From: Gammaproteobacteria bacterium
GTDB lineage: Bacteria > Pseudomonadota > Gammaproteobacteria > Eutrophobiales > Eutrophobiaceae
Direction of reading: 5' to 3'
Assembly: GCA_965226155.1 (NCBI GenBank)
Contig: OZ245331.1
Coordinates: forward strand, 466,681 to 530,680
Length of the DNA: 64,000 nt
The notes below the pieces were generated by a model. The model saw only the letters and a program-made list of their open reading frames with translations. It did no database searches and was not told the DNA's origin. Made by a program: the position numbers and the translations under genes. Every line of letters begins with the position of its first letter. Position 1 is the first letter of the stretch. Of the stretch, positions 1 to 25,424 are shown in pieces.

Positions 1-534
1 TGGGAAGCAATAAATGTTACGCGACGGCAAGAAGAATATGACATCCTGCTTTGTGAACAGCCATTGATGGGAGCCAAACAATTGGCCTATGTAGCTGAAC
101 GTATTGATTGTCCGGTGATGGCAGATGAATCTGCTTGGACTGTGCATGACATCTTGGAACTACATGAGTTAAAAGCTGCTGCCTATTTTTCTTGCTATGT
201 AACTAAACCAGGAGGGTTATACCGAGCGAAACAACAAGCAGATATCGCTGAAGCCTTGGGACTCTATAGTGATATTGGCGGTTCTATTGAATCTGGTATT
301 GGTAATGCAGCGAATTTACATCTCGGTGCAGCAACAAAAATTGCTACGTTGCCCAGTGTATCGCCTGTGTCCAAACCAGAAGGTGCGAGAGGTCCTTCTG
401 TCGCTGGAATTTATTACCTTGATGATCTAATTACAGATTCATTTGTATTTGAAGATGGTTGTGTGCTGGTTCCAGAAGGACCTGGACTCGGAATTGAAGT
501 AGATATGGACAAGATTAACAAATACGCATTTTAA
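1..534 (+). CDS. Mandelate racemase/muconate lactonizing enzyme family protein (enolase superfamily), C-terminal part; 5' end lies outside the window
   Basis: The reading frame is open from base 1 (no stop before the first ATG at 64). The translation matches the C-terminal capping/barrel region of MR/MLE enzymes (…YFSCYVTKPGGL…DIGGSIESGIGNAANLHLGAA…). The stop overlaps the start of the next gene (TAATG at 532-536), indicating an operon. Confidence 0.65.
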   Translation, partial: WEAINVTRRQEEYDILLCEQPLMGAKQLAYVAERIDCPVMADESAWTVHDILELHELKAAAYFSCYVTKPGGLYRAKQQADIAEALGLYSDIGGSIESGIGNAANLHLGAATKIATLPSVSPVSKPEGARGPSVAGIYYLDDLITDSFVFEDGCVLVPEGPGLGIEVDMDKINKYAF

Positions 535-1616
535 TGAGGATTGCAATACTGGGAGCAGGCAATGGTGGTGCTTCCGCAGTGGTTGAACTCAGCCAGCGTA
601 CCTTCAAGACACGTTTATGGAATCGCTCAAAAACCACATTAATGCCTTTTCAGGAAGCAGGTGGTGTTAAACACACCGGTTTTTTTGGTGAAGGAATTGT
701 CAAACCTGAATTCATTACTGACAAATTGAGTGAGGCCATTGATGGTGCTGATGTTATTATGGTTTGTTTACCGACTCTGGCCCATGCAAATATTGCTGAA
801 ATGCTGGCAAAACTAGGTGCCAATAACATTCCTGTGGTGCTGAACCCAGGGCATACAGGCGGAGCACTGGAATTCGTTGAAACATTTAATCGTAATCATC
901 TTACGCCGCCACCTACAGCCGAATTATCAACACTGACATATGTCGCCAGAAAACCTGAACCGGATATAGTTCGGACGACTGGATCAGCAAAACATGTTTG
1001 GGTTGCTACCATGCCAGGTGGTGAGATAGCGATGGAAGCAGCAAAGGAACTTTATCCAAATGCAGAATCCGCAAAAGATGTGATCGCAACGGGTCTGGCG
1101 AATGTCAACATGGTGTTACACCCCCCGGGTGCAATATTAGGTGCCGCCTGGGTTGAGGCAACTGGTGGTGATTTTACATTTTATGTTGAAGGTTTGCCGA
1201 CAGGCGTTGGTCGTGTCATGGAAGCATTAGACGCTGAGCGTTTAGCCGTGGCTAAAGCATTTGATCATCGGTTGCCAGATTTGTTTAGAGAGATGCAGTC
1301 AATTGGCACCATAGAGATGGATGCCGATCCAATAGAAAGTTTGGCAGCGGCAGTACGTGGTGGTGAAGCGAACAGTAAAACAAAAGCACCGGATTCGTTA
1401 AACCATCGCTATTACCGGGAAGATTTCTGGTATGGCGTTAAACCGTTCCTGGCATTTGCCGAAATTGCACATGTAGCTGTACCTGTGGCGAAATCACTGA
1501 TGAATCTTGCTGAATTGTTAGTGGGTGATTTGGTGCAAAGTGAAGGTAGATCATCAGCGGCAATGGGCGTTACAGGAATGAGTAAAAATGAATTAATTAC
1601 ATATGTCAGAGGTTAA
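534..1616 (+). CDS. NAD(P)-dependent opine (octopine/nopaline) dehydrogenase family protein
   Basis: N-terminal Rossmann motif MRIAILGAGNGGASAVVEL, 360 aa, with the overall layout of the octopine-DH family. Translationally coupled to the upstream racemase. Confidence 0.6.
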   Translation: MRIAILGAGNGGASAVVELSQRTFKTRLWNRSKTTLMPFQEAGGVKHTGFFGEGIVKPEFITDKLSEAIDGADVIMVCLPTLAHANIAEMLAKLGANNIPVVLNPGHTGGALEFVETFNRNHLTPPPTAELSTLTYVARKPEPDIVRTTGSAKHVWVATMPGGEIAMEAAKELYPNAESAKDVIATGLANVNMVLHPPGAILGAAWVEATGGDFTFYVEGLPTGVGRVMEALDAERLAVAKAFDHRLPDLFREMQSIGTIEMDADPIESLAAAVRGGEANSKTKAPDSLNHRYYREDFWYGVKPFLAFAEIAHVAVPVAKSLMNLAELLVGDLVQSEGRSSAAMGVTGMSKNELITYVRG

Positions 1617-1624
1617 ATAGATCA

Positions 1625-2524
1625 ATGTCTATAGAAATAAAGTATTCGGATAAATGGAATCAACTTACCATTGCTATCTTGGGCGGCGATGATCGTGAAC
1701 AAGAGATTGCACGTCTGGCCGCAACAACCGGTGCGACAGTCTTTGCATTTGGTTTTCCCTGGCCGGAAGGAGGTATAGAAGGCGTCTCATTGGCAACCAC
1801 TGCTGAAGAATGCTTGCGGGATGCCAAAATTGTCCTGATGCCAATCCCCGGAATAGCTACCGATGGCAGTATCTTTGCCAATGTGAAAATTATTCCACGA
1901 AAGAAACTATTATCGGTGATGGCGAATAGCGCGCATATTATTTTAGGCAAAGCAGATGAAGATCTGGCAAATGCAGCGGCTGGACTTGGAATAAGCATAC
2001 ATGAATATGAACAAGATCAGGAGCTAATGCTTTTACGTGCCCCAGCAATCGTGGAAGCAGCAATTAAAATTGTTATTGAGAACACCGCAATCACTATTCA
2101 CAACGCAAATATCTGTGTGGTTGGTCAAGGTAATATTGGTTCGGTATTAACACGATCACTCATAGCCCTGGGTGCACAGGTTACCGTTGCCGCACGTAAC
2201 CCAGTGCAACTCGCTGCGGCATATACAATTGGGGCAAAAGGATTGCAATTGAAACAACTTAAGGATGCTGCGCAAGGTTTTGACATGATCTTGTCAACAG
2301 TTCCCGCTCCCATTGTGACAAAAGATGTCATCGACCAATTACCGGCATCGGCATTAATTATGGATTTATCTGCACCTCCGGGAGGTGTTGATTTAGATTA
2401 TGCAAAACATACCGGGCGCCCTGCTATTTTGGCACGTGCATTAGGACGGCGTGCACCTATTACTGTCGGCGGAAGTCAATGGTCAGGTATTGCAAAGATC
2501 ATTAATAAAATTCTTGAAGATTAA
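1625..2524 (+). CDS. Dipicolinate synthase subunit A (DpaA)-like NAD(P)-binding dehydrogenase
   Basis: 299 aa. The N-terminus IAILGGDDREQEIARL…FAFGF and the central VVGQGNIGSVLTRSLIALGAQVTVAAR…DLSAPPGGVDLDYA align by eye along the whole length with Bacillus DpaA. No DpaB-like flavoprotein is adjacent. Confidence 0.55.
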   Translation: MSIEIKYSDKWNQLTIAILGGDDREQEIARLAATTGATVFAFGFPWPEGGIEGVSLATTAEECLRDAKIVLMPIPGIATDGSIFANVKIIPRKKLLSVMANSAHIILGKADEDLANAAAGLGISIHEYEQDQELMLLRAPAIVEAAIKIVIENTAITIHNANICVVGQGNIGSVLTRSLIALGAQVTVAARNPVQLAAAYTIGAKGLQLKQLKDAAQGFDMILSTVPAPIVTKDVIDQLPASALIMDLSAPPGGVDLDYAKHTGRPAILARALGRRAPITVGGSQWSGIAKIINKILED

Positions 2525-2530
2525 TTATAT

Positions 2531-3877
2531 ATGAAAGCAGACCTCTCAATTCTGAATGCTCGAGTTGTCGATCATAACGGTGAATTTTTTGGTGGTATTG
2601 CGGTAAGCGATGGCAAGATACTGGCAACAGGCACCGATAATGCCCTGCCTGATGCTAAACGTGTAATCGATGCAGAGGGCCGATGTTTATTTCCGGGAGT
2701 GATTGATACTCATTGTCACCTTGGTGTCGCCTATCCTTATGATGAAGACATGCGTACGGAAACAGCACAGGCAGCACGTGGCGGTATCTCAACGATCTTT
2801 CTGTATATTCGAAACAAAAAAGAATCCTATCTTTCATTTTATGATGAACGCCGTAGCATCGGTGAAAAAAATGCGTGTATCGATTTTGGTTTTCATTTTG
2901 GTATTCAACGTGAAGAACATATCCATGAAATCCCGAAGATCGTTGAACACACCGGTGTGCAATCCTTCAAACTGTATTTCGGTTACGAACCAGATAACCC
3001 TATCGGTATAGTGCCAGCCAATGATGGTTGGGTGTATGCCACCATGCTACAAGCAGTCAAGCTGCCAAAGGGTGTGGTCTCGGTACATTGCGAAAATACG
3101 GCTATTGCCTCCTGGATAAAGAATGACATGATGGAATCTGGCCGGCAGGATCTTGGAGCTTATACCGAATCCCGCCCTACTTTTTGCGAAGTCGAAACCA
3201 TTAAGCGCATGATCTTTCTCGCAGAACGTACAGGTTGCCCTCTGCAATTGGTGCATACTTCTGTCGGTGCTGGACCGGACATGGCCATTGAAGCACAAGC
3301 GCGAGGTGTTGATGTAACTGTTGAAACCTGTCCGCATTATTTAACGAGAACTTGTTATGATGAAGATCTAGATATGAAGGCAAAGATATCTCCTCCATTA
3401 CGAGATGAGGAACAAAAAGAATGGTTATGGCGGGGTATGTTAGCCAATAAGATCAATTCCATCGGTAGCGATCACGTGCCATTCTTACCGAAGAAAGGGG
3501 AGGACTTGTGGACGGAGTTACCCGGTATCGTCAGCTTTCCATGGGAGTTGCCGCTGTTAATTACTCATGGTGTAATTAATCATGGGATGTCGTTACAGCA
3601 GTTAGTCAGAGTCAATTCCTACGGACCCGCAAAACGTTTCGGTTTTTACCCACGCAAGGGATCACTCGAACCAGGAATGGATGCAGATCTGGTTCTAGTT
3701 GATTTGGATGAAGAACGTGAAGTTAAACATAGCGGTCACGGCACCTGTATATACGAGGGAATGAATTTAAAAGGCTGGCCAGTCATGACGGTCTCTAATG
3801 GTCGTATTGTTTATGAAAACGGCGAAATAGATGAAGATCAATATGGCCGTGGTGTATGTATCACTCGTCCTGACTGA
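2531..3877 (+). CDS. Cyclic amidohydrolase (dihydropyrimidinase/hydantoinase/dihydroorotase-like)
   Basis: 448 aa. The PGVIDTHCHLG metal-binding HxH motif near the N-terminus, the size, and the later GSDH motif fit the DHOase/hydantoinase branch of the amidohydrolase superfamily. Confidence 0.7.
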   Translation: MKADLSILNARVVDHNGEFFGGIAVSDGKILATGTDNALPDAKRVIDAEGRCLFPGVIDTHCHLGVAYPYDEDMRTETAQAARGGISTIFLYIRNKKESYLSFYDERRSIGEKNACIDFGFHFGIQREEHIHEIPKIVEHTGVQSFKLYFGYEPDNPIGIVPANDGWVYATMLQAVKLPKGVVSVHCENTAIASWIKNDMMESGRQDLGAYTESRPTFCEVETIKRMIFLAERTGCPLQLVHTSVGAGPDMAIEAQARGVDVTVETCPHYLTRTCYDEDLDMKAKISPPLRDEEQKEWLWRGMLANKINSIGSDHVPFLPKKGEDLWTELPGIVSFPWELPLLITHGVINHGMSLQQLVRVNSYGPAKRFGFYPRKGSLEPGMDADLVLVDLDEEREVKHSGHGTCIYEGMNLKGWPVMTVSNGRIVYENGEIDEDQYGRGVCITRPD

Positions 3878-4096
3878 TGTATATACCTTAAGTTAATATT
3901 TCTATTTTATTTTCCAACGCAGATAAAATAACAATTCGATACATCACATTTGCTACATCAGCATTGCCACATTTTCGGACCTTAAAAAGAAAAAAGTTTT
4001 GACGAAATTCTTTCAAAACGCCCTTCAACAAAATTAGAATATTTTCCACTCCAACTTCATAGCATGTTACAGGATCCTGCATACTAGTTATTTTCA

Positions 4097-4984
4097 TTAA
4101 CTTAATTTGGATAACAAAAACTCGACAAATACTCTGGTTTTTGGAGACTGGTATTCCCGGCTGGGATAATAAGCATAGTAAGCATCGGTTCTACCGGTAT
4201 AGTCATTCAACACCCTTTTGAGTTTATACTGTTTCAGCATGGGCGTAGCAAAATAATCATCCAGTCTTACTAGCCCGAGTCCTAGTACGCCAGCTTCACA
4301 CGTTGCTTCCTGAGTATTGACAATCATGGGACCGTTAACTTTAATGCTGTATTTGATACCGTCTTTGTAGAATTCCCAGGGTACTATTTTCCCTGTTGTA
4401 GGATGGCGAAAACCAATACATTTATGCATTTTGAGGTCATCGGGATGTTTTGGTCTAGAATGCTTGGCAAAATAACTCGGTGCCCCGTATATATTGAATT
4501 TCATAGGTGCTAGCTTTCTGGCTATAAAGTTACTATCTGAGAGGCTACCACTGCGTATACCCACATCAAATTTCCCTAGAATAAGATCACCACCCTGATT
4601 TTCGAAATCGAGATCCAGTACAATGGATGGGTAACGGTCCGCAAACTCTGGTAGCAGAGGTAAAATAACCTGTATTCCGAATCCCCTGATTAACGTAACG
4701 CGCAAATGACCAGATGGGGTTTCCTGGAATTCAGCCAATAGTGAAGAGGCCAGTTCCAGTTCTTCCAGTGCATTACAGTATTTTTCATACAAAAATTCGC
4801 CTTCTTCAGTAAGACTCATACGTCGGGTAGTACGATTGAACAAGCGTACATCCAGTGTTGCTTCCAGACGTTGAATATTCTTACTCACAGCCGCTGACGT
4901 GACACCTAGGATAGATGCAGCCTTCACAAAATTCCCTGTTTCCGCGGATTTAACAAATGCCAATATACCTTTGAGGGTTTCCAT
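4097..4984 (-). CDS. LysR-family transcriptional regulator
   Basis: N-terminal HTH (LKGILAFVKSAETGNFVKAASILGVTSAAVSKNIQRLE) followed by a LysR substrate-binding domain, 295 aa. Divergent from the TonB-dependent receptor gene. Confidence 0.85.
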   Translation of the reverse strand: METLKGILAFVKSAETGNFVKAASILGVTSAAVSKNIQRLEATLDVRLFNRTTRRMSLTEEGEFLYEKYCNALEELELASSLLAEFQETPSGHLRVTLIRGFGIQVILPLLPEFADRYPSIVLDLDFENQGGDLILGKFDVGIRSGSLSDSNFIARKLAPMKFNIYGAPSYFAKHSRPKHPDDLKMHKCIGFRHPTTGKIVPWEFYKDGIKYSIKVNGPMIVNTQEATCEAGVLGLGLVRLDDYFATPMLKQYKLKRVLNDYTGRTDAYYAYYPSREYQSPKTRVFVEFLLSKLS

Positions 4985-5033
4985 GAATTATTAACATTAT
5001 GTTGAAAATGAATTAATCATATACTACTATAAA

Positions 5034-5063
5034 TTAACAATAAACCAGAATATAGTGTTAATA
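5034..5063. promoter_or_regulatory. Candidate LysR-type operator (TTAACA-N16-TGTTAA palindrome) in the divergent lysR/TBDR intergenic region
   Basis: An inverted hexamer pair is present in the AT-rich 214-bp divergent intergenic region 4985-5198. Confidence 0.3.
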
Positions 5064-5198
5064 GAATTAATTTAACGGGTTTGGTAATATCAGGGGACAG
5101 GAACCATTCACTGCCGTAGAAGTTTCATTAAACAGAGACCTAATGTCAGTCAAGATACACTCTGTCTTGATATATTATTTGCTAACGGGAGGACAATA

Positions 5199-7505
5199 AT
5201 GAACAAGCAATCCCTTATTCTTCGTAACTACGTCTTACAAGTTGTTCAAATACTAATTGTATTCTTTCTTCCCATAGCGAGTTATGCACAAGGCGGTTCG
5301 ACTCTGGTACTTGAAGAAATAATTGTTACGGCGCAAAAGCGTGAGTTGAATCTGCAGGAGTCAGCGATAGCCGTAACGGCGATAACAGCTGAGGCTCTAG
5401 ACAGAGCAAATATCAATGGTGTGGTTGATCTTACGGGAAAGATCCCTGGTCTTACCATCAACAAAAACGAAGGACCGAAAATGGTCGTGACTTTACGCGG
5501 AATTGGTCACGAAGCGAATCAAAATGGTCAATCCGTACCTGGAATCGCCCTGCATTACGATGGAGTATTTATGCCGCAGGTACGATCCCTTGGCAGTGGT
5601 TTTCTTGATATTGAAAGGGTTGAAGTTTTACGTGGTCCGCAAGGCACGGTGTTCGGACAAAATTCGACCGGTGGATCGATAAATATCATTTCCAAACGAC
5701 CGGTAATTGGTGAGTTTTCTGGAAAGGCCGATATAACAGGGGGAAATTTTGGCTTAGTTCAACCGCGTGGAGCAATAAATGTTCCTATTTCCGATACCCT
5801 TGCAGCACGTGCTGCGTTCAGCTATTTAAATCATGATGGGTTTGCTGAAGTTATTGAAACAAACCCGGCGGCTCCAACAGGCCTTGCCGGATTTGAGCTG
5901 GATGACGCGAACGAGTACGCAGCGAGAATTCAAATTCTATGGCAACCGAGCGATATGTTTTCGGCCCTCGCACGCGCACAAATCCATGACAGTGATACTC
6001 ACGACAATGCTGAACGAAACATTCTAGACACAAGCCTAGATAAGAGAACGGTGGGTTACGATCAGGGAGGGCTAGATACTTTTCAACAAACTGTCTATAG
6101 CCTTGAATTGAAATACGAAACGCCATTTGCTACCTTTAAATCGCTGACTGCCTACCAGGACGTCGAAAGCACTGAACGTGGACGTGACAGCGACAGGGGT
6201 GTAGCAGCATTTCAACCAGCCCAGCAGATTGTTAGATTTAATGATATAAATACAGAGATCTGGACACAGGAATTTAACATTATCTCAAAAACCGAAGGCC
6301 CTCTGGACTGGCTGATTGGTGGGTTCTACATGAATTTTGACAACCACCGATTTTTTGATGATTATCGAGATGTAGATTTTGATGGTGATATTGACTTTTT
6401 TGAGGACACCAATGGCGATGGTCGTCCGAATGACGCCAGCTTCCGTTCGATTACACCTGCTGTCAGGGATTCCTTTTCAGTCTATGCCGAGGGAACATAT
6501 CATTTCACGGATGATTTGCGTATCACTGCTGGTTTACGCTATACCGATGATGAAATCGATGCACTCCCAACCACCCAGTTTGCAACACCCGATCCTACAA
6601 TGAATTTTCTGAGTTCAGTCAACAAAGTCACATGGAAGGCAAGCTTTCAGTGGGATCCGATGGAAGACGTGTTGACTTACTTTACTGTCTCCACCGGAAT
6701 AAAACCTGGTGGTGTTAATACATTGGCCAGCCTAGGGACCGCCTCATCTCTGGTCGACCCGGTTTTTGCGGAGGAAGAGGTCCTGGCTTTTGAAATTGGA
6801 TTGAAAAGTCAATCTAGTGACGGCCGCTATCAGTTTAATGCCGCCGGTTTCATTTACGATTATGAAAATTTTCAGTTTCATGGGGAAAATTTTGCTCCCT
6901 TTAATGGCGGCGTCAGTAATGTACCCCAGTTGAATATACATGGTGCAGAGTTTGAATTTTCAGGCCTGCTTACAGATACCTTAAGGCTGGACGCAAATCT
7001 GACCTGGCTGGATGGCGAAGTGGATGGTAGTCACATGGTGTTGTCTCCGCTTGATGCAGGGAACGCTAATTCTGCTACGTTTGCTGGCGGGTCGGGTCTG
7101 TTCTCTCCACTGAATTTTGCCTTACGTACTGCTGCGGTAGCTGATATTAACGGAAATACTCCGCCAAAATTACCCCCAATCTCGCTCAATTTAAATCTTA
7201 CCCATGAGACGAATATTGCAGATTGGGGCATACTCACTTCAACGATCTCCTATACATATAAAGATGAGTATGACTATCAAATATACAATGCCCCGGGTCT
7301 TGAAGTACCGAGTGAAGATTTGATAGACCTGTCTTTTCATTACAAACCACATGATGGTAATTGGTCAGCTGCTTTGTTAATTATGAATCTGGAGGATGAT
7401 GATGCCGTTAACTCACGCTGGACTAATGTATTTGGTGTCAATCAAACATCAGAGCAGTACTTTGCGCCGCGACAAGTGTTAGTCCGGCTAGGTTACGAAT
7501 TTTAA
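5199..7505 (+). CDS. TonB-dependent outer-membrane receptor
   Basis: Signal peptide, TonB box LEEIIVTAQKRE, plug-domain motifs, 768 aa, and a C-terminal …RLGYEF ending in an aromatic residue. Confidence 0.85.
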   Translation: MNKQSLILRNYVLQVVQILIVFFLPIASYAQGGSTLVLEEIIVTAQKRELNLQESAIAVTAITAEALDRANINGVVDLTGKIPGLTINKNEGPKMVVTLRGIGHEANQNGQSVPGIALHYDGVFMPQVRSLGSGFLDIERVEVLRGPQGTVFGQNSTGGSINIISKRPVIGEFSGKADITGGNFGLVQPRGAINVPISDTLAARAAFSYLNHDGFAEVIETNPAAPTGLAGFELDDANEYAARIQILWQPSDMFSALARAQIHDSDTHDNAERNILDTSLDKRTVGYDQGGLDTFQQTVYSLELKYETPFATFKSLTAYQDVESTERGRDSDRGVAAFQPAQQIVRFNDINTEIWTQEFNIISKTEGPLDWLIGGFYMNFDNHRFFDDYRDVDFDGDIDFFEDTNGDGRPNDASFRSITPAVRDSFSVYAEGTYHFTDDLRITAGLRYTDDEIDALPTTQFATPDPTMNFLSSVNKVTWKASFQWDPMEDVLTYFTVSTGIKPGGVNTLASLGTASSLVDPVFAEEEVLAFEIGLKSQSSDGRYQFNAAGFIYDYENFQFHGENFAPFNGGVSNVPQLNIHGAEFEFSGLLTDTLRLDANLTWLDGEVDGSHMVLSPLDAGNANSATFAGGSGLFSPLNFALRTAAVADINGNTPPKLPPISLNLNLTHETNIADWGILTSTISYTYKDEYDYQIYNAPGLEVPSEDLIDLSFHYKPHDGNWSAALLIMNLEDDDAVNSRWTNVFGVNQTSEQYFAPRQVLVRLGYEF

Positions 7506-7512
7506 TTATCCA

Positions 7513-7543
7513 GCCGCCCAATACTGAATAAGTATTGGGCGGC
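7513..7543. terminator. Bidirectional stem-loop between convergent genes
   Basis: Perfect 13-bp inverted repeat GCCGCCCAATACT…AGTATTGGGCGGC with a 5-nt loop, located between the TBDR (+) and the amidohydrolase (-). Confidence 0.5.
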
Positions 7544-7589
7544 CTACCTATCTAATTGACGAGACTTTTAAAGGACTGTAAGACTTAAT

Positions 7590-9002
7590 TCAATAGTTCT
7601 TTTGAATGTATGGTCTGATCTTGTTAGCCACACGTTGTGCGGCCCGTTTGATATCTTCAATATCGCTTACCAATAGACGACCATTCTTTTTAGCTAGTTG
7701 GCCGTTTATAAATACGAAATCTACGTTTTCTGGCTGGCCATAAAAAACGATCTGCTTGACCAAATCTAGCTGCGGCATGAGATTTACAGTACCTGCATTT
7801 ATTATGACCATGTCCGCTCTCTTACCTGGAGTCAGTGATCCGATCTGATTGGCCATTCCCAAAGCTTTAGCACCGGAAATAGTCGCCATTATAAGGACTT
7901 GTGAGGCGTTTGGTGTCGCGTCAGCTTTACCTGAAACAGCCCGCTGTAGGCCAATCGCAGCACGCATAACATCGAACATATTACCGCCACTGCTGACAGC
8001 ACCACCATCCACGCCAAGACCAACAACGATGCCGGCATCAAGCAAATCAGCCAAACGCATGACTCCTGATCCGGTACGCATATTACTCACTGGGCAATGT
8101 ACGAGTCGTACATCATGACTTGCAAGTAGCTCAATTTCTTCAGCAGTTAAATGGACAGCATGAGCAGCTAGGAGTTTTAGTCCAAGGGCGCCGGTCCTTT
8201 TTAGTGCCTCGAATTGACCTTGTTGCCGATCATTTATGCCCTCATGCAAATGGATATGTAGCTGCAAATCCAGATTTTTAGCTAATGTGACCATGGATTT
8301 AACCGCAGTAAACAAAGGTTCTTCTGTGGAGGGTACGGGTGATAACTGCAAGGATGCCAGCGGATTTTTATCAACCAGATTTTTAATGGTTTCAATGTCG
8401 TCTAACACGGCAGGTGTTGTCCTGGTAACCTTGTAACCCAATGCGAATCGTAGCCCTGAATCTTCGAGCCCTCGCAGGTTTCCCTGTACAAAGTCTGGTG
8501 AAAACGCGGATGACCAGTCAGCTACGGTCGTAATACCGGAGTTTAAGAGTTCAAGGGCACCAAAACGTACACCATCATAAGCATCCTCTTCACTGATTAG
8601 ATTGCCATATAGCGGATATATACAATTGTCGAGCCATCCATCAATATTCTCTTCGTCACCGCAGCCACGCATCACTGCCTGAAAAAGATGGTCATGTGCA
8701 CTGACAAAACCCGGCATGATGATTTTACCACTAACGTCAATGACCGTTGATGCTTCTGTTTCTAACTGTTCCCCAATGGTGACAATGCTATCCCCAGAAA
8801 TTAGTATGTCGTGATTTCTTAATATGCCAAGTTGTCCTTCACCCATGTCAGGATCCATAGTCAGAATCAATGAGGCATTACGTAGCAAAATGTCAGAGTC
8901 ATTGTTTGCACCAAATACACTTGTGGCGCTGGCGAACAAGAAAACAACAATGAATTTCACCGAAGGATGAATAGCAGAATTAATGACGTGAAATAGTAAC
9001 AT
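7590..9002 (-). CDS. Amidohydrolase-family protein (TRZ/ATZ chlorohydrolase/deaminase-like), probably exported
   Basis: A hydrophobic N-terminal leader is followed by the PGFVSAHDHLFQ metal-binding motif, in a 470-aa protein. Confidence 0.7.
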   Translation of the reverse strand: MLLFHVINSAIHPSVKFIVVFLFASATSVFGANNDSDILLRNASLILTMDPDMGEGQLGILRNHDILISGDSIVTIGEQLETEASTVIDVSGKIIMPGFVSAHDHLFQAVMRGCGDEENIDGWLDNCIYPLYGNLISEEDAYDGVRFGALELLNSGITTVADWSSAFSPDFVQGNLRGLEDSGLRFALGYKVTRTTPAVLDDIETIKNLVDKNPLASLQLSPVPSTEEPLFTAVKSMVTLAKNLDLQLHIHLHEGINDRQQGQFEALKRTGALGLKLLAAHAVHLTAEEIELLASHDVRLVHCPVSNMRTGSGVMRLADLLDAGIVVGLGVDGGAVSSGGNMFDVMRAAIGLQRAVSGKADATPNASQVLIMATISGAKALGMANQIGSLTPGKRADMVIINAGTVNLMPQLDLVKQIVFYGQPENVDFVFINGQLAKKNGRLLVSDIEDIKRAAQRVANKIRPYIQKNY

Positions 9003-9005
9003 AAT

Positions 9006-10364
9006 TTAGTTTTCACCAGTTGTCTGCTCCGATTCTGCAAGGCAAATTAAATAAGGCTTTTGACCAATATAGAAAAGACAGGTACTGATAGCTAATGCCG
9101 AGCCCCCCGATATCATCAGAGAATATCGCAACATGGATAAGTCCTGGAATACATACTCTGTTAGGAAGGCAACGAAGGTCGGGCCCAGACCAAGCCCTAA
9201 AATAGATTGGGCAAAGAAATAGACTGCGGTGATTTGACCTCGCATACGTGCAGGTGACATGATCTGTAATGCGGCGGCGGCTACTCCGAACGGTGCCCCG
9301 GTAAGTAAGTGCAGTGGAAAAATTAACATCAGAGCAAACGTGGAACTTGGCATTAGCGGATAGAGAAGCCGTAGCCAGAATGACGCAAATGCAATCAGCA
9401 CCAATACTTTCATTTTGGCGTCTACACTAGAAGTTCTAGATAATCGGTCAGTAATTATGCCGGCAATTAATGCGCCGGTAAACTGGCCAACGGTCGCAGT
9501 AATCCCATAGTAAATACCACTCTGCTCCGGCGGCCACCCAAAACTTCGATGGAAAAACGTAATATCCCAAAACGCTGCTCCGTAACTGCCGATATTAAGA
9601 AAACCCATTCCAACATAAATTGAAGTAAGAGCTAGCCAATGTCGTCGCATATATGCCACGACTTTTGCTATTGAGGGCACGGTTTTACTATGACCCTGGC
9701 GTTTTGGTTCATTAACTGTAAACAGGATCATAGAAAACGCCAATCCGGGAAGGCCTACAGACAGAAATACAATTCGCCAAGGCGTGAGATCGCCAAGAAA
9801 CGGTACATTTATAAATCCCAGATCACCAACCAGCCCATTAGCCCAACCTAATACAACGGCACCCCCAAGGAAGGCAAATCCAAAGCCAAAGGCACCACCC
9901 ATAGTGCAGATACTAATGGCCAGGGTTAGTCGGTGCCGCGGAAAAATATCTGCAAGCATGGAATATGCGCAAGGTGCAAGCGCAGCCTCACCGATACCAA
10001 CACCCATACGCAGAAACAAAAGTTGCCAATAATTGTTGGCAAAACCACATGCAGCAGTTGCAACTGTCCATGTGACAACTCCAAAAATAATTAGCCATTT
10101 CCTGTTATAACTATCGGCCAAACGGCCCATAGGGATACCGAAAACAGTATAGAATATGACAAAACTTAAGCCACCAATATAACTTAGCTGGATATCAGTC
10201 AGGCCTAGGTCGGCTTTCATATCTGGTACAAGAATGCCGATAATCTGGCGATCAACAAACGAAAATACAAAGAAAATTGCAAAGATAATGGCAACGAACC
10301 AGGCATAGGCAGAGGGAGAATCACCTACACTTTCATATCGGGAGTTTGCAGTGGCGGTACTCAT
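9006..10364 (-). CDS. MFS transporter
   Basis: 12 predicted hydrophobic segments, a G-x-L-A-D-R/K-like loop (GRLADSYNRK), 452 aa. Confidence 0.8.
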   Translation of the reverse strand: MSTATANSRYESVGDSPSAYAWFVAIIFAIFFVFSFVDRQIIGILVPDMKADLGLTDIQLSYIGGLSFVIFYTVFGIPMGRLADSYNRKWLIIFGVVTWTVATAACGFANNYWQLLFLRMGVGIGEAALAPCAYSMLADIFPRHRLTLAISICTMGGAFGFGFAFLGGAVVLGWANGLVGDLGFINVPFLGDLTPWRIVFLSVGLPGLAFSMILFTVNEPKRQGHSKTVPSIAKVVAYMRRHWLALTSIYVGMGFLNIGSYGAAFWDITFFHRSFGWPPEQSGIYYGITATVGQFTGALIAGIITDRLSRTSSVDAKMKVLVLIAFASFWLRLLYPLMPSSTFALMLIFPLHLLTGAPFGVAAAALQIMSPARMRGQITAVYFFAQSILGLGLGPTFVAFLTEYVFQDLSMLRYSLMISGGSALAISTCLFYIGQKPYLICLAESEQTTGEN

Positions 10365-10688: not shown

Positions 10689-11297
10689 ATGAACATCACA
10701 CCTACCAAAACTGCTTTATTGATTATTGACCCTCAAAACGATTTTTGCCATCCAGAAGGCGTATTGGCTCAAAGTGGTGTAAATGTCACTCAACTCGTAA
10801 CTCTGGGGCCTAAGATCAAAGAACTAACAAAACTATGTCAGCGTGCTGGTATCCAGGATATCTGGACGCAACAAATCAATCATCCCGTTGATCATGGCCG
10901 TGCACACAAACAAATCAAGTCACATACTGATAAACGTAAAAAGTACGCAGCTCAACCAGGTAGTTGGGGAGCTGAATTCGTAAATGAATTAAAGCCGCTA
11001 ATTAATGAAAAATCGGAAGTGTTGGTAAAATACCGTTTTAATTGCTTCATGCACACACGTCTTGAACAATTATTGAAAGTCTTGGGCATTAATACCCTGG
11101 TTGTCTGTGGCGGGACAACCAATGCTTGTGTCGATACGACTGTGCGGGATGCTTACATGCTCGATTATGACGTTGTAATGATCGAAGATTGCATAGCCGG
11201 TGTGCGTGAAGACTGGCACAAAATGGCGCTAGAAGTCTGGAAGCATTATATAGGCGAAGTAATGAGTTTAGCAGAGTTTAAAAAGACACTTGAATAA
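10689..11297 (+). CDS. Isochorismatase-family cysteine hydrolase (candidate N-carbamoylsarcosine amidase-like)
   Basis: LLIIDPQNDFCHPEG and VVCGGTTNACVDTTVRDA (catalytic Cys), 202 aa. An AGGAG ribosome-binding site lies upstream. Confidence 0.8.
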   Translation: MNITPTKTALLIIDPQNDFCHPEGVLAQSGVNVTQLVTLGPKIKELTKLCQRAGIQDIWTQQINHPVDHGRAHKQIKSHTDKRKKYAAQPGSWGAEFVNELKPLINEKSEVLVKYRFNCFMHTRLEQLLKVLGINTLVVCGGTTNACVDTTVRDAYMLDYDVVMIEDCIAGVREDWHKMALEVWKHYIGEVMSLAEFKKTLE

Positions 11298-11669
11298 AAA
11301 ATGTGGTGTTGCTATGTGATGTAGACACTAAGCTTTAGCATTATTCGACCCTGTTTAATTTCCTAGTGAAAAGAGCAATGTCAGACAGTAAAATTCCTAA
11401 CAATATTCTTGAAATATGGTTTTCACTACTACTTGAGATAAGCTATCGTACTATGCTTCATCGCATAAATTATTATAAACAATAAGTTGATAATAATTCG
11501 AATTAATAGCTACTATACATTAAGTATTGATCTCCTTAAAATTGAAGTTTGGGAGGAATTTGCATTTGACAAACCCTAGATTGCTCAGTGGTTAACCATC
11601 CATTTTACTGAATAATTTGGTCGATAGTGCAAAGCCTCAAATTCCGTAGCACACAGACGAGGCCATGTA

Positions 11670-12281
11670 GTGTTAAAAATCATACCCGAAGAAACTGTAC
11701 TACTGGTTATTGATCCACAGAATGATTATTGCCACCCGGACGGAAACCTTGGTCAGAGTGGTGTTGATTTATCCGTTTGGAAAGAGGTAACGCCCAGAAT
11801 AAAGAAGTTAATTGAATTGTGTCGTAATGCTGGCATTAAGGATATCTGGTCACGACACTACAACCTCCCTGGTGATGTAGGCAAAGCTGCTAAACGCATT
11901 CAGGCCCACACAGCAAAACGTAAAAATCTGTCTGCTCAACCAGGTACCTGGGGTAGTGAGTTTGTTGATGAGTTAAAAACATTAGTTTCGGATGACACTA
12001 CAGTAATCGAAAAGTATCGATTCAGTGTTTTTTACGGCACAACACTGGAACCATTGCTTAATATCCTGGGATGCAAATTGATCGTAATTTGTGGTGGCAC
12101 AACCAACGCTTGTATAGATACAACAATCCGAGATGCCTACGTTAGAGATTATGATGTAGTCATGGTAGAAGATTGTATTGGCGGTGTACGCGATGACTGG
12201 CACAAGATGGCTACGGAAGTTTGGCAACATTACCTGGGAGATGTGGTTGCACTGGAACATTTTGAGCAAATGTTGTCCTGA
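11670..12281 (+). CDS. Isochorismatase-family cysteine hydrolase, tandem paralog
   Basis: About 60% identical by eye to the upstream gene (LLVIDPQNDYCHPDG; VICGGTTNACIDTTIRDA). GTG start. Confidence 0.8.
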   Translation: MLKIIPEETVLLVIDPQNDYCHPDGNLGQSGVDLSVWKEVTPRIKKLIELCRNAGIKDIWSRHYNLPGDVGKAAKRIQAHTAKRKNLSAQPGTWGSEFVDELKTLVSDDTTVIEKYRFSVFYGTTLEPLLNILGCKLIVICGGTTNACIDTTIRDAYVRDYDVVMVEDCIGGVRDDWHKMATEVWQHYLGDVVALEHFEQMLS

Positions 12282-12312
12282 GGAAATTTGATTTCACAAG
12301 TGAGGTGTAGTT

Positions 12313-14520
12313 GTGGTCGTAACAGAAGCCGCAATTAAACAGAAGACCGCAATCAGCCTGGATACAGGTCTAGATCCAATCACATTTCAGATATTGAGAA
12401 GCCGACTTGTTGCTATTAATGAGGAAGCCGCTACCACATTGAAACTGGTATCCGGTTCTACCGTAGCGACCGAAGCCAACGATATGAATACAGCCATCAT
12501 GAATGCACAGGGAGACGTCGTAGCGGTAGCGCGTTATTCATTAGCTAAGGCTACGACTATGTCACTGGTTGTTAAAGACATCGTAAAGAATTATCAAAAA
12601 AACCCGGGAATTAATGAGGGAGATGCATTTCTCACCAACGATGTTTATCTCGGCGTTCAACATCAAAACGATGTGGCGGTAGTCATGCCATTTTTTGTTG
12701 ACGATGAATTAGTTGCCTGGACCGGCGCGGAAGTGCATGAATTGGATGTGGGTGGCCCAGTTGCCGGTAGTGTGCAGATTGGGGCGAAGGATATCTATGG
12801 TGAAGCGCCGTTGATACCCCCTATTAAAATAGTCGAAAACTATGAAATTCGAAAAGACATAGAACGTAATTATTTGCGTATGTCGCGAGTGCCTGATTCA
12901 GTTGCACTCGACCTAAGAGCAAAATTTTCAGCCTCTAGTGTGGCATGTGACCGTTTAACCAAATTGGTCGAACGCTATGGACTCGCGGATGTAAAGCTGG
13001 CGATGGAAGGATCGTTGGATTATGCAGAACAAAAATTTCGGGCTTTATTGTCAACCCTGCCTAACGGAACCTGGCGCCATGTGACCTATCTGGATTATGA
13101 CGGAGATATCTATCCCATCCGTATTGCGATGACCAAGCAAGACGATGAACTGATATTTGATTTCACCGGCACTGCCAAACAGGCACCCGCCATTATTAAT
13201 TGTACCCGGCAATCGTTAATCGCTGTGTCTCTGGGTTATATTTGTATCAGCTTGGGTTGGGATATTCCCTGGAGTCCATCAGCACTGGGACGATTGGTAA
13301 CTTATGTCACGGAACCGGGAACGATTGTAGATTGCCAGTGGCCTGCCGGTTGCTGTAAATCCACTACCAGTATTTCCTGGTCAGTCGGCAAGGCATCAGG
13401 CTTGTTACTCGGCAGGATGCTGGCCTGCAGTGACGATACTCGTGCCAAGGCAATGGCTAGCTGGATAGGCTCCATGACCGTGGAAGAGTTATTCGGCACC
13501 GATAATGACGATAAGGTTTTTGGCGGCATCGTTATCGACACTATGTCCGGTGCGGCCGGTGCTCGAACTTTTAAGGATGGTATTGATACAGGAGGTTATC
13601 TGGGTTCCATGGGTATGGCGATTGCTAATGTTGAGTCTTATGAAGTCGAACATCCCATTTTATATTTATATCGACGTCAGGAAATCGATGGTGGTGGTGC
13701 AGGGACCTACCGCGGTGGTACCAGTCTCAGAAAAGCCTATACGCCCCATGGTGTCGATGAAATATCCTCATTCGTTGTGCATTGTATGGGAGTTGAGATG
13801 CCGTTATCGCCGGGAATGTACGGGGGCTTTCCAGCGGGAACCAACCAACTCACGATCATACGATCCACTAACGTTCATGATTTATTGAAAAATGGAACAG
13901 TGCCACAGTGTGCCGAAGAGCTGGAAGGAGAATCTGAAGTTCAGCAGGGTATTTCGATAAATCACCTGAAATACGGAGATGTATTTGTAGGAGGGACAAT
14001 GGGTGCAGGAGGGTATGGCGATCCGATCGACCGAGATCCACAACTTGTTCTGCATGATTTTGTCTCGGGTCTTACATCAGACAAGACGGCAAAGGAAATG
14101 TATGGAGTAGTAATAAAGGATGATGAGGTGGATAAGAAAGCGACCGCAAAACAACGTGATCAAATCCGTAGTCGTCGGCTTGCCGATGCAACAGACGCTA
14201 AAAATGCACCAGTCTCTAATGAAGGATTGCATCTCGGTTTGCACGTTGGTCAGCACCTCAGACTACTCAGCAAAGATGATGAAAAGTATATTGGGTGTTC
14301 GTGTGGGCGAATACTGTCACCAGCGCAAGAAAATTATAAAGAATGGGTTGCTGAAGCTAGACGCCCATTGAGCGCCGGGGGGCCACAATGTGATCCGTTT
14401 AAAAAGGGTCATGACCGCTTTGAATTGCGAGAGTACTATTGCCCAGAATGTGCTTCTTTGTTGGAAGTGGACATGGTTGAGAAATCAGAGCCGATAGTTT
14501 GGGATCTGCAACTGACTTAA
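12313..14520 (+). CDS. Hydantoinase B/oxoprolinase family protein (HyuB-like) with a C-terminal Cys-rich extension
   Basis: 735 aa with hydantoinase-B conserved blocks. The last ~140 aa carry CSCG…CDPF…CPEC cysteine pairs that typical ~580-aa HyuB proteins lack. Confidence 0.8.
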   Translation: MVVTEAAIKQKTAISLDTGLDPITFQILRSRLVAINEEAATTLKLVSGSTVATEANDMNTAIMNAQGDVVAVARYSLAKATTMSLVVKDIVKNYQKNPGINEGDAFLTNDVYLGVQHQNDVAVVMPFFVDDELVAWTGAEVHELDVGGPVAGSVQIGAKDIYGEAPLIPPIKIVENYEIRKDIERNYLRMSRVPDSVALDLRAKFSASSVACDRLTKLVERYGLADVKLAMEGSLDYAEQKFRALLSTLPNGTWRHVTYLDYDGDIYPIRIAMTKQDDELIFDFTGTAKQAPAIINCTRQSLIAVSLGYICISLGWDIPWSPSALGRLVTYVTEPGTIVDCQWPAGCCKSTTSISWSVGKASGLLLGRMLACSDDTRAKAMASWIGSMTVEELFGTDNDDKVFGGIVIDTMSGAAGARTFKDGIDTGGYLGSMGMAIANVESYEVEHPILYLYRRQEIDGGGAGTYRGGTSLRKAYTPHGVDEISSFVVHCMGVEMPLSPGMYGGFPAGTNQLTIIRSTNVHDLLKNGTVPQCAEELEGESEVQQGISINHLKYGDVFVGGTMGAGGYGDPIDRDPQLVLHDFVSGLTSDKTAKEMYGVVIKDDEVDKKATAKQRDQIRSRRLADATDAKNAPVSNEGLHLGLHVGQHLRLLSKDDEKYIGCSCGRILSPAQENYKEWVAEARRPLSAGGPQCDPFKKGHDRFELREYYCPECASLLEVDMVEKSEPIVWDLQLT

Positions 14521-14551
14521 AGCAACTTAAATTTTATTTGAGAGAGATTGA

Positions 14552-16648: not shown

Positions 16649-16655
16649 TTGTTCA

Positions 16656-17153
16656 TTGAATATGAGTGAGTCCCCCACAAAAGATGGAGACCTGGATAAT
16701 TTACGTCGAGCTATAGCACTAGCGATGCTATCGAGAAAGAATGGAAATAATCCTTTCGGTACCGTGCTAGCAGATCAGGAGAGAACTATTTTACTTGAAG
16801 CTGAGAATTCTACTAAAACAGATCGAGACTGCACCGCACATTCAGACATTAATTTAATACGCAATGCTTGGCAGAAGTTTGATGCTGAATACCTGGCAGA
16901 ATGCACCCTTTATACGAGCGCTGAACCATGCGCGATGTGTGCCGGAGCAATTGTGTGGGCGAATATTCGTCGTGTGGTATACAGCCTTGGTAACACTGCA
17001 TTGTATGATCAAATGAATCCACGTGCTGATGGGTTAGGACTTTACACTCCGTGTCGTGAAATTTTTAATGGCGCACCCTGGAAAATTAAAACCATTGGAC
17101 CGTTACTTGAGGAAGAAGCAAGCAAAGTACATCAAGATTTTTGGCAAAAATAA
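16656..17153 (+). CDS. CDA-fold nucleoside/nucleobase deaminase (cytidine/deoxycytidylate deaminase family)
   Basis: The zinc-ligand motifs HSDI and SAEPCAMCAGAI (H-x-E…PC-x-x-C) are present; the likely ATG start is at 16662. Confidence 0.75.
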   Translation: MNMSESPTKDGDLDNLRRAIALAMLSRKNGNNPFGTVLADQERTILLEAENSTKTDRDCTAHSDINLIRNAWQKFDAEYLAECTLYTSAEPCAMCAGAIVWANIRRVVYSLGNTALYDQMNPRADGLGLYTPCREIFNGAPWKIKTIGPLLEEEASKVHQDFWQK

Positions 17154-17162
17154 AATATAGTA

Positions 17163-18278
17163 ATGAGGAATTTTATTCTTAAACGATTGCAGAAAGCCAT
17201 GGACGAAAATGGGTTCGATGCTGTTATCTGTTTGTCTCCAGAAAACTTTTCTTATGTATCTGGCTTTATCGTGCCTTCACAACAATTGATGCGTTGGCGG
17301 CATGCGGCTGTCGTTGTAACTGCTGATGGCAGGTGTGCATATTTAGTTGTTGATATGGAAGAAACAACAATTAAAAGCAAGTCTAAAAATATTGAAGTGC
17401 GTGTTTGGGGGGAATTTACAGACAAACCAATGCAAGTGTTAGCTGGTTTATTATCGGATATGGATTTGACGAATGCAAAAATTGGCATAGAAATGGATTA
17501 TCTTTTTGCAGGTGACTTTGCAGAACTTAAAAATCAAATGCAGGGCGCAGAGTTACACCCGGCTGAAAATATTCTAGCGCGATTACGCCAGATTAAAACG
17601 GCAGAAGAAATTGATTTAATGCGACGCTTGTCACGTATTGCAGATGAGTCAATTCATAATACGTTAATGGATACTTTTGCTGGTAGTTCAGAAATGGATA
17701 TTGCTGGAGGATTAACAAAAAACATCTACAATCTTGGTGCTGATAATTTCAAACTCATGATTGTTGCAACAGGTGAGCGTAGTGTATTTCCTAATGTTGG
17801 CCCTTCTTTGCGTAAACTGAAAAAAAGTGATGTTTGCCGAGTTGAAATATTTTCTGTTATCAATGGATATCATGCTGGCGTTTGTCGTACAGCTTGTGTA
17901 CAAACACCACCACCAAATGCAGAAGATATTTGGAAAAATTTAATTGAATGTAAATATTTAGTATTAGACATGATCAAGCCAGGTGCCAGCTCAAAAGAAA
18001 TCTACGAAGCTTTTATAAAGCACTTGAACAAACTTAATCTACCACCAATTAAATTTATAGGGCATGGCATTGGCTTGCATTTGCATGAAGAACCTTATTT
18101 GGGAATGTATTCTGATGTACCACTGAATGCAGGAATGGTGTTAGGGATAGAGCCCTTAGTGTATGACACTGGATACGGATTTGGTATGCAAAACAAAGAT
18201 ATTATCTTAGTGACCGAAACCGGATCAGAAATCCTGTCTGATTTTACAAACACAGACACATTATTAACAATTAACTAA
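17163..18278 (+). CDS. M24-family protein with creatinase/prolidase N-terminal domain
   Basis: The creatinase-like N-domain is followed by a pita-bread M24 domain (HGIGLHLHEEP, GMVLGIEP). The first two canonical Asp metal ligands appear substituted (…VEIFSVINGYHAGVCRT). Confidence 0.7.
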   Translation: MRNFILKRLQKAMDENGFDAVICLSPENFSYVSGFIVPSQQLMRWRHAAVVVTADGRCAYLVVDMEETTIKSKSKNIEVRVWGEFTDKPMQVLAGLLSDMDLTNAKIGIEMDYLFAGDFAELKNQMQGAELHPAENILARLRQIKTAEEIDLMRRLSRIADESIHNTLMDTFAGSSEMDIAGGLTKNIYNLGADNFKLMIVATGERSVFPNVGPSLRKLKKSDVCRVEIFSVINGYHAGVCRTACVQTPPPNAEDIWKNLIECKYLVLDMIKPGASSKEIYEAFIKHLNKLNLPPIKFIGHGIGLHLHEEPYLGMYSDVPLNAGMVLGIEPLVYDTGYGFGMQNKDIILVTETGSEILSDFTNTDTLLTIN

Positions 18279-18314
18279 AGTCAACTAGATATAAATTTAT
18301 TAAATAAAATTTGT

Positions 18315-19754: not shown

Positions 19755-19786
19755 CAACAATTCACTAATTTAAATGAGGTAAGCAA

Positions 19787-19981: not shown

Positions 19982-19983
19982 CC

Positions 19984-20700: not shown

Positions 20701-20766
20701 ATTTATTTTAAGAATTCATTTGCAAATATATACAGTTGATCATAGATAGCATCAATTAGATACACG

Positions 20767-25402: not shown

Positions 25403-25424
25403 ATCTTGCCCATATAAGTTGTTT

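Follow-up and report, generated by a model that had tools for sequence, protein, structure and literature searches.

We describe here a four-gene operon at positions 1..3877 of a 64,000-nucleotide (nt) stretch of contig OZ245331.1 (positions 466,681-530,680, assembly GCA_965226155.1), which we call the window and whose numbering is used throughout unless a locus is named. Its genes, all on the + strand, encode an MLE-subgroup enzyme of the enolase superfamily, an opine-dehydrogenase-like (OpDH-like) protein, a DpaA-like dehydrogenase and a hydantoinase-like amidohydrolase. Comparison across bacteria reveals that this operon is the front half of a unit of about eleven genes. Because deaminases, an M24-fold protein, an amidase, a 4-oxalocrotonate-tautomerase-family (4-OT) protein and a VOC protein are conserved partners of the four, we read the whole set as serving catabolism of a nitrogen-rich cyclic amidine or ureide rather than of a classical opine, with the four genes as the promoter-proximal operon of a split copy, a reading to which we give an even chance. 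The system is best described as an N-heterocycle catabolic cluster with an orphan module of DpaA-like, OpDH-like, tautomerase and VOC proteins, and not a categorically new type of system.

Operon structure and conservation

The MLE gene is interrupted by the start of the window, where 1..534 holds the C-terminal 177 codons of a 384-amino-acid (aa) protein (MR_MLE_C, 112 bits). It is followed by the OpDH-like gene (534..1616, 360 aa), the DpaA-like gene (1625..2524, 299 aa) and, as last gene of the operon, the amidohydrolase gene (2531..3877, 448 aa). The first junction measures -1 nt, with one base of TAATG (532-536) common to stop and start; the second is 8 nt long (ATAGATCA, before 1625) and the third 6 nt (TTATAT, before 2531), which confirms the translationally coupled four-gene operon proposed in the first-pass annotation of this DNA.

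That annotation also expected remaining operon genes upstream of the window, and there are none. A look-up of the exact DpaA-like and OpDH-like proteins recovered a single contig with DNA, the 23-kb locus L001, in which the full MLE gene lies at L001:204-1358 and position 825 corresponds to window position 1, the MLE start being 620 nt ahead of the latter. Because the 203 nt 5' of this start, after which the contig ends, are AT-rich and non-coding, MLE is the first gene of the operon and nothing is missing upstream in this genome; in relatives, P450 and SDR genes occupy the region upstream of MLE.

A perfect 14-nt inverted repeat, ACAAATATAGATCA N7 TGATCTATATTTGT, lies 82-116 nt 5' of the MLE start (L001:88-122), that is, 702-736 nt before window position 1 and outside the window. 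With at most one mismatch allowed, the motif GATCA-N7-TGATC occurs within 400 nt upstream of MLE in 15 of 44 loci, compared with a background of 0.1 per kb; all 15 are gammaproteobacterial, and protein identity among them is merely 65-78%. This conserved palindrome is likely the operator of a shared regulator and marks MLE as the operon start. The regulator itself is probably the cluster's GntR protein, not the adjacent LysR. The motif was not found before the window's second operon (see below), promoter and terminator scans gave counts no higher than shuffle expectation, and Rfam returned zero matches in the window.

Related loci were collected by a one-genome-per-species scan with an alignment of the DpaA-like clade, giving 52 loci from Gamma-, Alpha- and Betaproteobacteria, Actinomycetota and two metagenome-assembled genomes (MAGs), one of Saprospiraceae and one of Terriglobales. 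Megaplasmids of Aminobacter, Shinella and Phyllobacterium were added by a plasmid search, and arrangements were counted over 55 sources. All four genes are colinear in 37 of these, which come from no fewer than five phyla or classes (Gamma-, Alpha- and Betaproteobacteria, Actinomycetota and Bacteroidota). MLE immediately precedes the OpDH-like gene in 43 sources; the OpDH-like gene immediately precedes the DpaA-like gene in 43, and in a further 8 one aldehyde dehydrogenase gene lies between these two; and the amidohydrolase gene directly follows the DpaA-like gene in 45. This grouping is far beyond chance, and the synteny on which the first-pass annotation had staked its operon is thus strong and crosses phyla. 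The nearest relatives are gammaproteobacterial MAGs from corals and sponges, with identities to L003 of 89% for MLE, 72% for the OpDH-like protein, 76% for the DpaA-like protein and 90% for the amidohydrolase, while the cluster is equally common in soil Actinomycetota.

The four core enzymes

Families were assigned from Pfam and NCBIfam profile scores set against curated equivalog cut-offs. All four active sites are intact and, judged by their conserved residues, the enzymes look functional.

The full-length MLE protein, product of the most conserved gene (60-89% identity), matches MR_MLE_N (72 bits) and MR_MLE_C (159 bits) of Pfam. Its best PDB match is 2p88 (182 bits), which we take to be the N-succinyl-Arg/Lys racemase of B. 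cereus, followed by muconate cycloisomerases and dipeptide epimerases. The features of the MLE subgroup are all present, namely capping and barrel domains, a KxK motif, three metal carboxylates and a second catalytic Lys, with K169-x-K171, D199, E226, D249 and K276 invariant in 36 of 36 orthologues. No NCBIfam equivalog cut-off for a characterized isofunctional MLE family is reached: scores are 230 against 335 for muconate cycloisomerase (TIGR02534), 137 against 500 for cis-3-hydroxyproline dehydratase (HProlDhtase), 126 against 201 for OSBS and 116 against 500 for Ala-Glu epimerase.

The OpDH-like NAD(P) oxidoreductase carries the Octopine_DH helical domain (118.9 bits, Pfam threshold 30) and an N-terminal Rossmann GxGxxG motif (G7/G9/G11-12) that is invariant in 40 of 40 orthologues. 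Its sole PDB match is CENDH (1bg6, 155 bits), in which His202, Arg292 and Asp297 align with its own His196, Arg292 and Asp297, again invariant in all 40; the literature on CENDH and octopine dehydrogenase gives these as the catalytic residues of CENDH. With CENDH and other NAD(P) opine dehydrogenases the protein therefore has in common full-length homology, the Rossmann motif and the aligned His/Arg/Asp. Unlike them, it is encoded among deaminases and ureide hydrolases rather than among amino-acid or opine genes.

The DpaA-like protein matches DpaA_N (PF16924, 70.4 bits), falls below both DpaA cut-offs (211.9 against 261 for NF006162, DpsA; 183.6 against 319.65 for TIGR02853) and is 27-30% identical to DpaA, with 30% for that of B. 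velezensis. For its AlphaFold2 (AF2) model, with a predicted local distance difference test score (pLDDT) of 85, as for its sequence, the best PDB matches are the DpaA structures 2rir and 3d4o (Foldseek E 1e-20 to 1e-21, template-modelling (TM) score 0.71-0.76), the next fold class being transhydrogenase dI and alanine dehydrogenase (Foldseek E 1e-11). Because both searches lead to DpaA, the protein belongs to the DpaA family and is not simply a generic 2-hydroxyacid dehydrogenase.

Bacillus DpaA/SpoVFA (2rir, 3d4o) and the DpaA-like protein share a two-domain fold, DpaA_N, GxGxxG and a conserved Arg after the second Rossmann strand. Cofactor preference was considered as a pointer to redox direction and dropped, as this Arg is common to true DpaA. 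The clade differs from Bacillus DpaA in its own invariant motifs (GGD[DE]REQE, PIPG, EYE, R138 and R271/R275/R276), which true DpaA lacks, and in its surroundings, which hold no sporulation or asd-dapG context and always include a 4-OT tautomerase and a VOC protein, usually together with an OpDH-like gene. Moreover, in Bacillus dpaB directly follows dpaA, whereas tblastn with B. velezensis DpaB as query (E<1e-3) found no match in the window (64 kb) or any of 54 related loci, in agreement with the lone DpaA-like gene of the first-pass annotation. In non-sporulating Proteobacteria such as Aminobacter and Shinella, RefSeq calls proteins of this clade 'dipicolinate synthase subunit DpsA', a label that is almost certainly wrong for the clade.

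The last enzyme of the operon resembles hydantoinases, allantoinases and dihydropyrimidinases in its Amidohydro_1 and NCBIfam matches and falls below the cut-offs for allantoinase (286 against 631), D-hydantoinase (274 against 393), AllB (259 against 358) and DHOase (209 against 279). Its best PDB match is the L-hydantoinase 1gkr (209 bits). The binuclear metal site of cyclic amidohydrolases (HxH, carboxylated Lys, two His and Asp) is complete, with H61, H63, K147, H186, H242 and D314 invariant in 39-40 of 40 orthologues.

The larger gene set and its split copy

The neighbouring open reading frames (ORFs) of all loci were clustered and the resulting families annotated, with small genes recovered by tblastn. 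Beyond the four core genes, the recurrent families are a deaminase-like amidohydrolase of the TRZ/ATZ/SsnA superfamily and an isochorismatase-family amidase (39 of 55 sources each), an M24 protein of creatinase/prolidase fold (38), a cytosine-deaminase-like amidohydrolase (27), and a CobW-type GTPase with a 230-260-aa partner that has no Pfam match (24 each). GntR regulators and NMT1/THI5-type ABC transporters also recur. The 64-aa 4-OT tautomerase was found by tblastn in 46 of 56 sources, including loci without MLE and amidohydrolase genes, and the VOC domain (~120 aa) in 44 sources; 36 of these encode it as a fusion with the isochorismatase domain, and mycobacterial loci as a fusion with the tautomerase. 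The four-gene operon is thus real but is part of a larger unit, extended by the deaminases, M24 protein, amidase, 4-OT and VOC. In the closest relatives, a single array reads MLE, OpDH, DpaA-like, amidohydrolase, cytosine-deaminase-like, M24, TRZ, 4-OT and isochorismatase::VOC.

The 230-260-aa partner, encoded for example at L004:3565-4365 (-) and L055:16225-16905, adjoins the CobW/COG0523 GTPase, and RefSeq annotates it as 'resolvase' or 'hypothetical' in Aminobacter and Shinella. It may help to deliver metal to the amidohydrolases.

In the window the array is split, with an inserted segment (4097..10364) followed by a second operon (10689..20364, + strand). The latter begins with two isochorismatase-family hydrolases of the RutB/BiuH/carbamoylsarcosine-amidase-like type (10689..11297 and 11670..12281; 144 and 133 bits for Pfam Isochorismatase), which share 45-47% identity with the isochorismatase domain typical of the cluster in relatives; the best PDB match is RutB (65 bits), ahead of carbamoylsarcosine amidase relatives (48 bits). 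Then come the HyuB-like (12313..14520, Hydantoinase_B 359 bits) and HyuA-like (14552..16648, Hydantoinase_A 327 bits) subunits of an ATP-dependent hydantoinase/lactamase. The next gene encodes a CDA-fold zinc deaminase of dCMP/cytidine-deaminase type (16656..17153, dCMP_cyt_deam_1 72.5 bits), which stands where relatives carry the cytosine-deaminase-like gene; the latter was not found in the window.

The cluster-type M24 hydrolase follows (17163..18278, Creatinase_N and Peptidase_M24; 73% identical to its L003 orthologue). The E. coli PepQ ligands D246/D257/H339/E384/E423 correspond to E/G/H/E/K in 27 of 32 cluster-type M24 proteins, including that of the window, so that three of five metal ligands are missing. 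By these residues, the cluster-type M24 proteins of the window and of loci L003-L054 are probably not canonical dinuclear metallopeptidases; their matches are to prolidases, creatinase not being among the matches at E<1e-15. The operon continues with the cluster-type TRZ/ATZ/SsnA-superfamily, deaminase-like amidohydrolase (18315..19754, Amidohydro_1 171 bits), which is 80% identical to its L003 orthologue, has 3hpa as its best full-length PDB match and reaches no NCBIfam cut-off. It ends with a 64-aa 4-OT protein with a Met-Pro start (19787..19981, Tautomerase 65.7 bits) and a single-domain VOC protein of glyoxalase fold (19984..20364, 126 aa, Glyoxalase 59 bits).

The inserted segment, annotated with Pfam and NCBIfam, comprises a LysR regulator (4097..4984, -), a TonB-dependent receptor (5199..7505, +), a second TRZ/ATZ-type amidohydrolase with a hydrophobic N-terminus (7590..9002, -) and an MFS transporter (9006..10364, -). 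It is not found at this position in the closest relatives (L003-L011). The insertion is thus particular to this genome. Elsewhere, L020 and L052 contain the same MFS transporter, L018 and L020 contain the receptor, and TonB receptors account for 4 of 83 otherwise unclassified neighbour ORFs. Because these genes reappear near the cluster in a few other loci, the suggestion that they supply uptake is plausible.

The second TRZ/ATZ amidohydrolase is ~26% identical to the cluster-type TRZ protein, lies between the receptor and MFS genes and has an N-terminus that, judged by eye, is signal-peptide-like. From its sequence, it may act in periplasmic pre-processing of the substrate.

Variant loci

Several loci deviate from the main arrangement. 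L038, from a Thermoleophilaceae genome, carries isochorismatase, HyuB, HyuA, tautomerase::VOC, M24, MLE, OpDH and DpaA-like genes and has no hydantoinase-like gene; its HyuAB pair is 52% identical to that of the window. For this reason it appears that a single ring-opening step can be served by either HyuAB or the hydantoinase-like enzyme, and the window carries both. Mycobacterial loci keep the ABC transporter, M24, TRZ, tautomerase::VOC, MLE, OpDH, DpaA-like and GntR genes.

In L035 (6013-18906), L041, L048 and also L049, the DpaA-like and 4-OT genes stand beside a molybdenum hydroxylase of the XDH/CODH family. The OpDH-like paralogues of these loci are ~30% identical to the window protein, and VOC is seen in L035. 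Depending on the locus, a luciferase-like enzyme, a DHDPS-like protein, 5-oxoprolinase PxpB/C or a formamidase is added, and the DHDPS-like neighbour in L035 suggests a possible degradative route of dipicolinate or picolinate type. In Variovorax (L040), the DpaA-like gene lies beside 4-OT, VOC and an NMT1-type transporter. The tightest association is thus that of DpaA-like, 4-OT and VOC, usually with OpDH-like, and MLE joins in the main context.

The plasmid-borne cluster of the methylamine utilizer Aminobacter aminovorans (pAA01, L055) contains a malate synthase G gene beside the OpDH-like gene and a DAO-family dehydrogenase gene. RidA occurs both there and in the cluster of Shinella sp. HZN7 (pShin-03, L056), and pntAB transhydrogenase genes adjoin the cluster.

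Proposed pathway

Gene content, synteny, intact active sites, the absence of DpaB and alternative enzymes at the same steps are observed; the substrate class, the redox direction and the order of steps are inferred. We would expect a ring resembling creatinine, hydantoin or a pyrimidine, with a carboxylated stereocentre that is either present in it or formed from it. Import would probably proceed here through the TonB receptor and MFS transporter, and elsewhere through the NMT1/THI5-type ABC system. Amidine amino groups would be removed by the TRZ-type deaminase together with the cytosine-deaminase-like enzyme in relatives or the CDA-fold deaminase in the window. The ring would then be opened by the hydantoinase-like amidohydrolase, a step that HyuAB could also perform, and the resulting N-carbamoyl acid would be decarbamoylated by the isochorismatase-type amidase. 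The OpDH-like and DpaA-like proteins would carry out nicotinamide-dependent C=N/C-NH redox chemistry on the ring or on a secondary amine or imino acid, assisted by the 4-OT tautomerase and a VOC isomerase. Finally, MLE would abstract the alpha-proton of a carboxylate intermediate, resulting in racemization, epimerization or beta-elimination, and the products would be NH3, CO2 and a small oxo or amino acid. The catabolic direction already favoured in the first-pass annotation draws support from the regulators, importers and hydrolases found alongside. The malate synthase G and DAO-family dehydrogenase genes of the Aminobacter cluster, and the RidA genes of Aminobacter and Shinella, also speak for the proposed pathway. 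The opine-like or cyclic imino-acid substrate envisaged there fares less well, since the partners point to a cyclic amidine or ureide.

Several points weigh against this interpretation. No member of the set reaches a curated equivalog cut-off, and each step rests on superfamily chemistry. A literature search found no paper on the cluster or on the pairing of DpaA-like and OpDH-like proteins, consistent with the earlier view that the combination is not a textbook pathway, and the analysis yields a substrate class only, not a specific compound. Furthermore, the mycobacterial variant lacks the hydantoinase-like, isochorismatase and cytosine-deaminase-like genes, and ring opening and decarbamoylation are therefore not obligatory partners of the MLE-OpDH-DpaA trio. 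The Arg shared with true DpaA likewise gives no direction for the two redox steps.

Alternative explanations

An unlikely explanation is that the cluster serves creatinine or creatine utilization. Creatinine would be deaminated to N-methylhydantoin and converted on to N-carbamoylsarcosine and sarcosine, the ring being opened by the hydantoinase-like enzyme or HyuAB and N-carbamoylsarcosine cleaved by the isochorismatase-type amidase; the M24 protein would be a creatinase, and the OpDH-like protein would turn sarcosine into glyoxylate and methylamine. The known amidase has the isochorismatase fold and creatinase the M24 fold. The CodA-like deaminase, HyuAB or hydantoinase, isochorismatase-family amidase and metal-poor M24 protein represent the families of two known routes, which include cytosine deaminase, N-methylhydantoinase and creatinase (PMC6742649). 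The closest relatives are sponge and coral MAGs, in which such genes are routinely read as creatinine degradation (PMC6742649), and M24-fold genes near deaminase and hydantoinase genes are called creatinase in sponge metagenome papers. Moreover, the conserved set includes no sarcosine oxidase, and malate synthase G accompanies the OpDH-like gene in Aminobacter aminovorans.

The superfamilies of creatinine deaminase, N-methylhydantoinase, N-carbamoylsarcosine amidase and creatinase are present, but the matches are distant and do not mark any of the cluster's proteins as orthologous by score. Five extra conserved enzymes are present. Sarcosine and creatinine have no stereocentre, which leaves the stereochemistry-dependent MLE, product of the most conserved gene, without a role, and the TRZ, DpaA-like, tautomerase and VOC proteins are left over as well. 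The isochorismatases are nearer to RutB than to carbamoylsarcosine amidase relatives, the M24 proteins find prolidases rather than creatinase, and soil Actinomycetota carry the cluster just as commonly.

Quite unlikely, in our view, is that the compound broken down is a classical opine (N-carboxyalkyl amino acid) or a cyclic imino acid, of which MLE would epimerize one centre while the two dehydrogenases would cleave or oxidize the secondary amine. The OpDH-like protein does keep the CENDH His/Arg/Asp, and the relatives of MLE include N-succinyl-amino-acid racemases (the presumed identity of 2p88), dipeptide epimerases and cis-3-hydroxyproline dehydratase. In addition, mycobacterial loci retain the MLE-OpDH-DpaA trio in the absence of the hydantoinase-like gene, and some actinobacterial loci carry genes for 2-oxoacid dehydrogenase E1. 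However, the conserved partners include a pair of amidine deaminases, a cyclic amidohydrolase and a ureido-type amidase, none of which an opine would need, and the transporter is of NMT1/THI5 type rather than one with an amino-acid or opine-type binding protein. A PDB search with the NMT1-type binding protein gave one weak match only. Among the annotated neighbourhood families there is no flavin-dependent opine oxidase, arginase-family protein or ornithine cyclodeaminase.

Synthesis, also raised as a possibility in the first-pass annotation, is most improbable in the form of a staphylopine-like, opine-type metallophore or a dipicolinate-like chelator taken up by the TonB receptor: opine dehydrogenases make staphylopine-type metallophores and the receptor adjoins the operon, but the receptor segment is missing from most loci, the annotated families include no aminobutyrate transferase (nicotianamine-synthase-like), histidine racemase or DpaB, and the partner genes encode hydrolases, deaminases, importers and regulators of the GntR repressor type.

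Comparison with known pathways

The logic proposed here for amidine or ureide catabolism has counterparts in several described pathways. Its deaminase, hydantoinase, isochorismatase-family amidase and M24 protein parallel the enzyme families of the two creatinine/creatine routes discussed above. In the recently solved reductive urate (2,8-dioxopurine) pathway of gut bacteria, the organisms deaminate and reduce the substrate, open its rings with SsnA- and HyuA-type amidohydrolases and remove ureido groups (bioRxiv 10.1101/2025.05.19.654654; PMC12990295). The cluster resembles it in the combination of reduction, ring opening by these enzyme types and stepwise ureido removal. In contrast to that pathway, the conserved set has no XdhD, YgfK, carbamoyltransferase, M20 peptidase or pyridoxal phosphate (PLP)-dependent lyase, and its reductases would be nicotinamide-dependent Rossmann enzymes. 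Membership in reductive urate clusters was rejected, the SsnA models scoring the TRZ protein at 125-148 against cut-offs of 444-455; the XdhD, YgfK, YgeW, YgeY and YgeX families are not among the recurrent neighbours of the main context.

Hydantoin-utilization operons, and the industrial hydantoinase process, likewise combine ring opening with N-carbamoyl removal and a racemase, and the closest structure to the amidohydrolase, 1gkr, is presumably the L-hydantoinase of the Arthrobacter aurescens hyuP-A-H-C operon. Known hydantoin operons use an M20- or nitrilase-type carbamoylase and an Asp/Glu-type hydantoin racemase, whereas the cluster's decarbamoylase is of the isochorismatase family and its racemase-like enzyme of MLE type; the cluster further adds two dehydrogenases, two deaminases, M24, tautomerase and VOC.

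Parallels to the Rut pyrimidine pathway are RutB, the best solved homologue of the isochorismatases, and the RidA proteins (cf. RutC) of the Aminobacter and Shinella clusters. RutC and RutD handle an enamine product, and by analogy the tautomerase and VOC could do the same. Unlike the Rut pathway, the annotated families of the main context include no RutA/RutF-type oxygenase or flavin reductase, and ring opening would be hydrolytic. Pterin or lumazine catabolism was considered on account of TRZ-type pterin and 8-oxoguanine deaminases and an orphan tetrahydroxypteridine cycloisomerase. It was rejected as leading idea because the paper on the Cupriavidus pathway, which uses a molybdenum dehydrogenase, an amidase-signature isomerase and a UbiD-type decarboxylase, mentions none of the cluster's families.

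A wider and rather unlikely generalization is that the DpaA-like, OpDH-like, 4-OT and VOC proteins form an unrecognized flavin-independent C=N module for N-heterocyclic carboxylates, used in at least three catabolic contexts: the hydrolytic deaminase/hydantoinase cluster, the molybdenum-hydroxylase clusters and a bare transporter context. The module would reduce or re-oxidize such bonds through tautomerization and then imine reduction, in effect a dearomatizing step. If so, the substrate of the main context would be a common, overlooked nitrogen-rich metabolite, and the genes to which creatinine degradation is now ascribed in symbionts of sponges and corals may be those of another pathway.

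A new enzyme function would emerge from establishing the real reaction of the DpaA-like clade together with that of its OpDH-like, tautomerase and VOC partners. Carriers live in sponges, corals, sediment and soil and belong to several phyla, and because the cluster spans such habitats and lineages, its substrate is probably an abundant nitrogen-rich metabolite. Once it is named, the microbial nitrogen cycle would gain a further route, and claims based on annotation of these very gene families, creatinine degradation by symbionts among them, would be corrected. Carriers that have been both cultured and sequenced belong to Aminobacter, Shinella, Arthrobacter, Leucobacter, Amycolatopsis and Mycobacterium/Mycolicibacterium, offering a solid lead for enzyme and pathway discovery.

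Other genes in the window

Between the first operon and the inserted segment, a 69-aa ORF (3888..4097, -) was considered as a tautomerase and rejected; it has no Met-Pro start, lies in an AT-rich region and is probably spurious. After the VOC gene and on the same strand, 20431..22152 encodes a YCII-domain protein and an iron-sulfur L-serine dehydratase (SDH_beta and SDH_alpha), which are not conserved with the cluster in other loci, except for YCII in L042. Further downstream, a luciferase-like monooxygenase gene (23362..24366, -) is separated by a 166-aa ORF without Pfam match from a 190-aa ORF (24881..25453, -), which matches only the first half of the luciferase-like Pfam domain and may be a disrupted or fragmentary luciferase-like copy.

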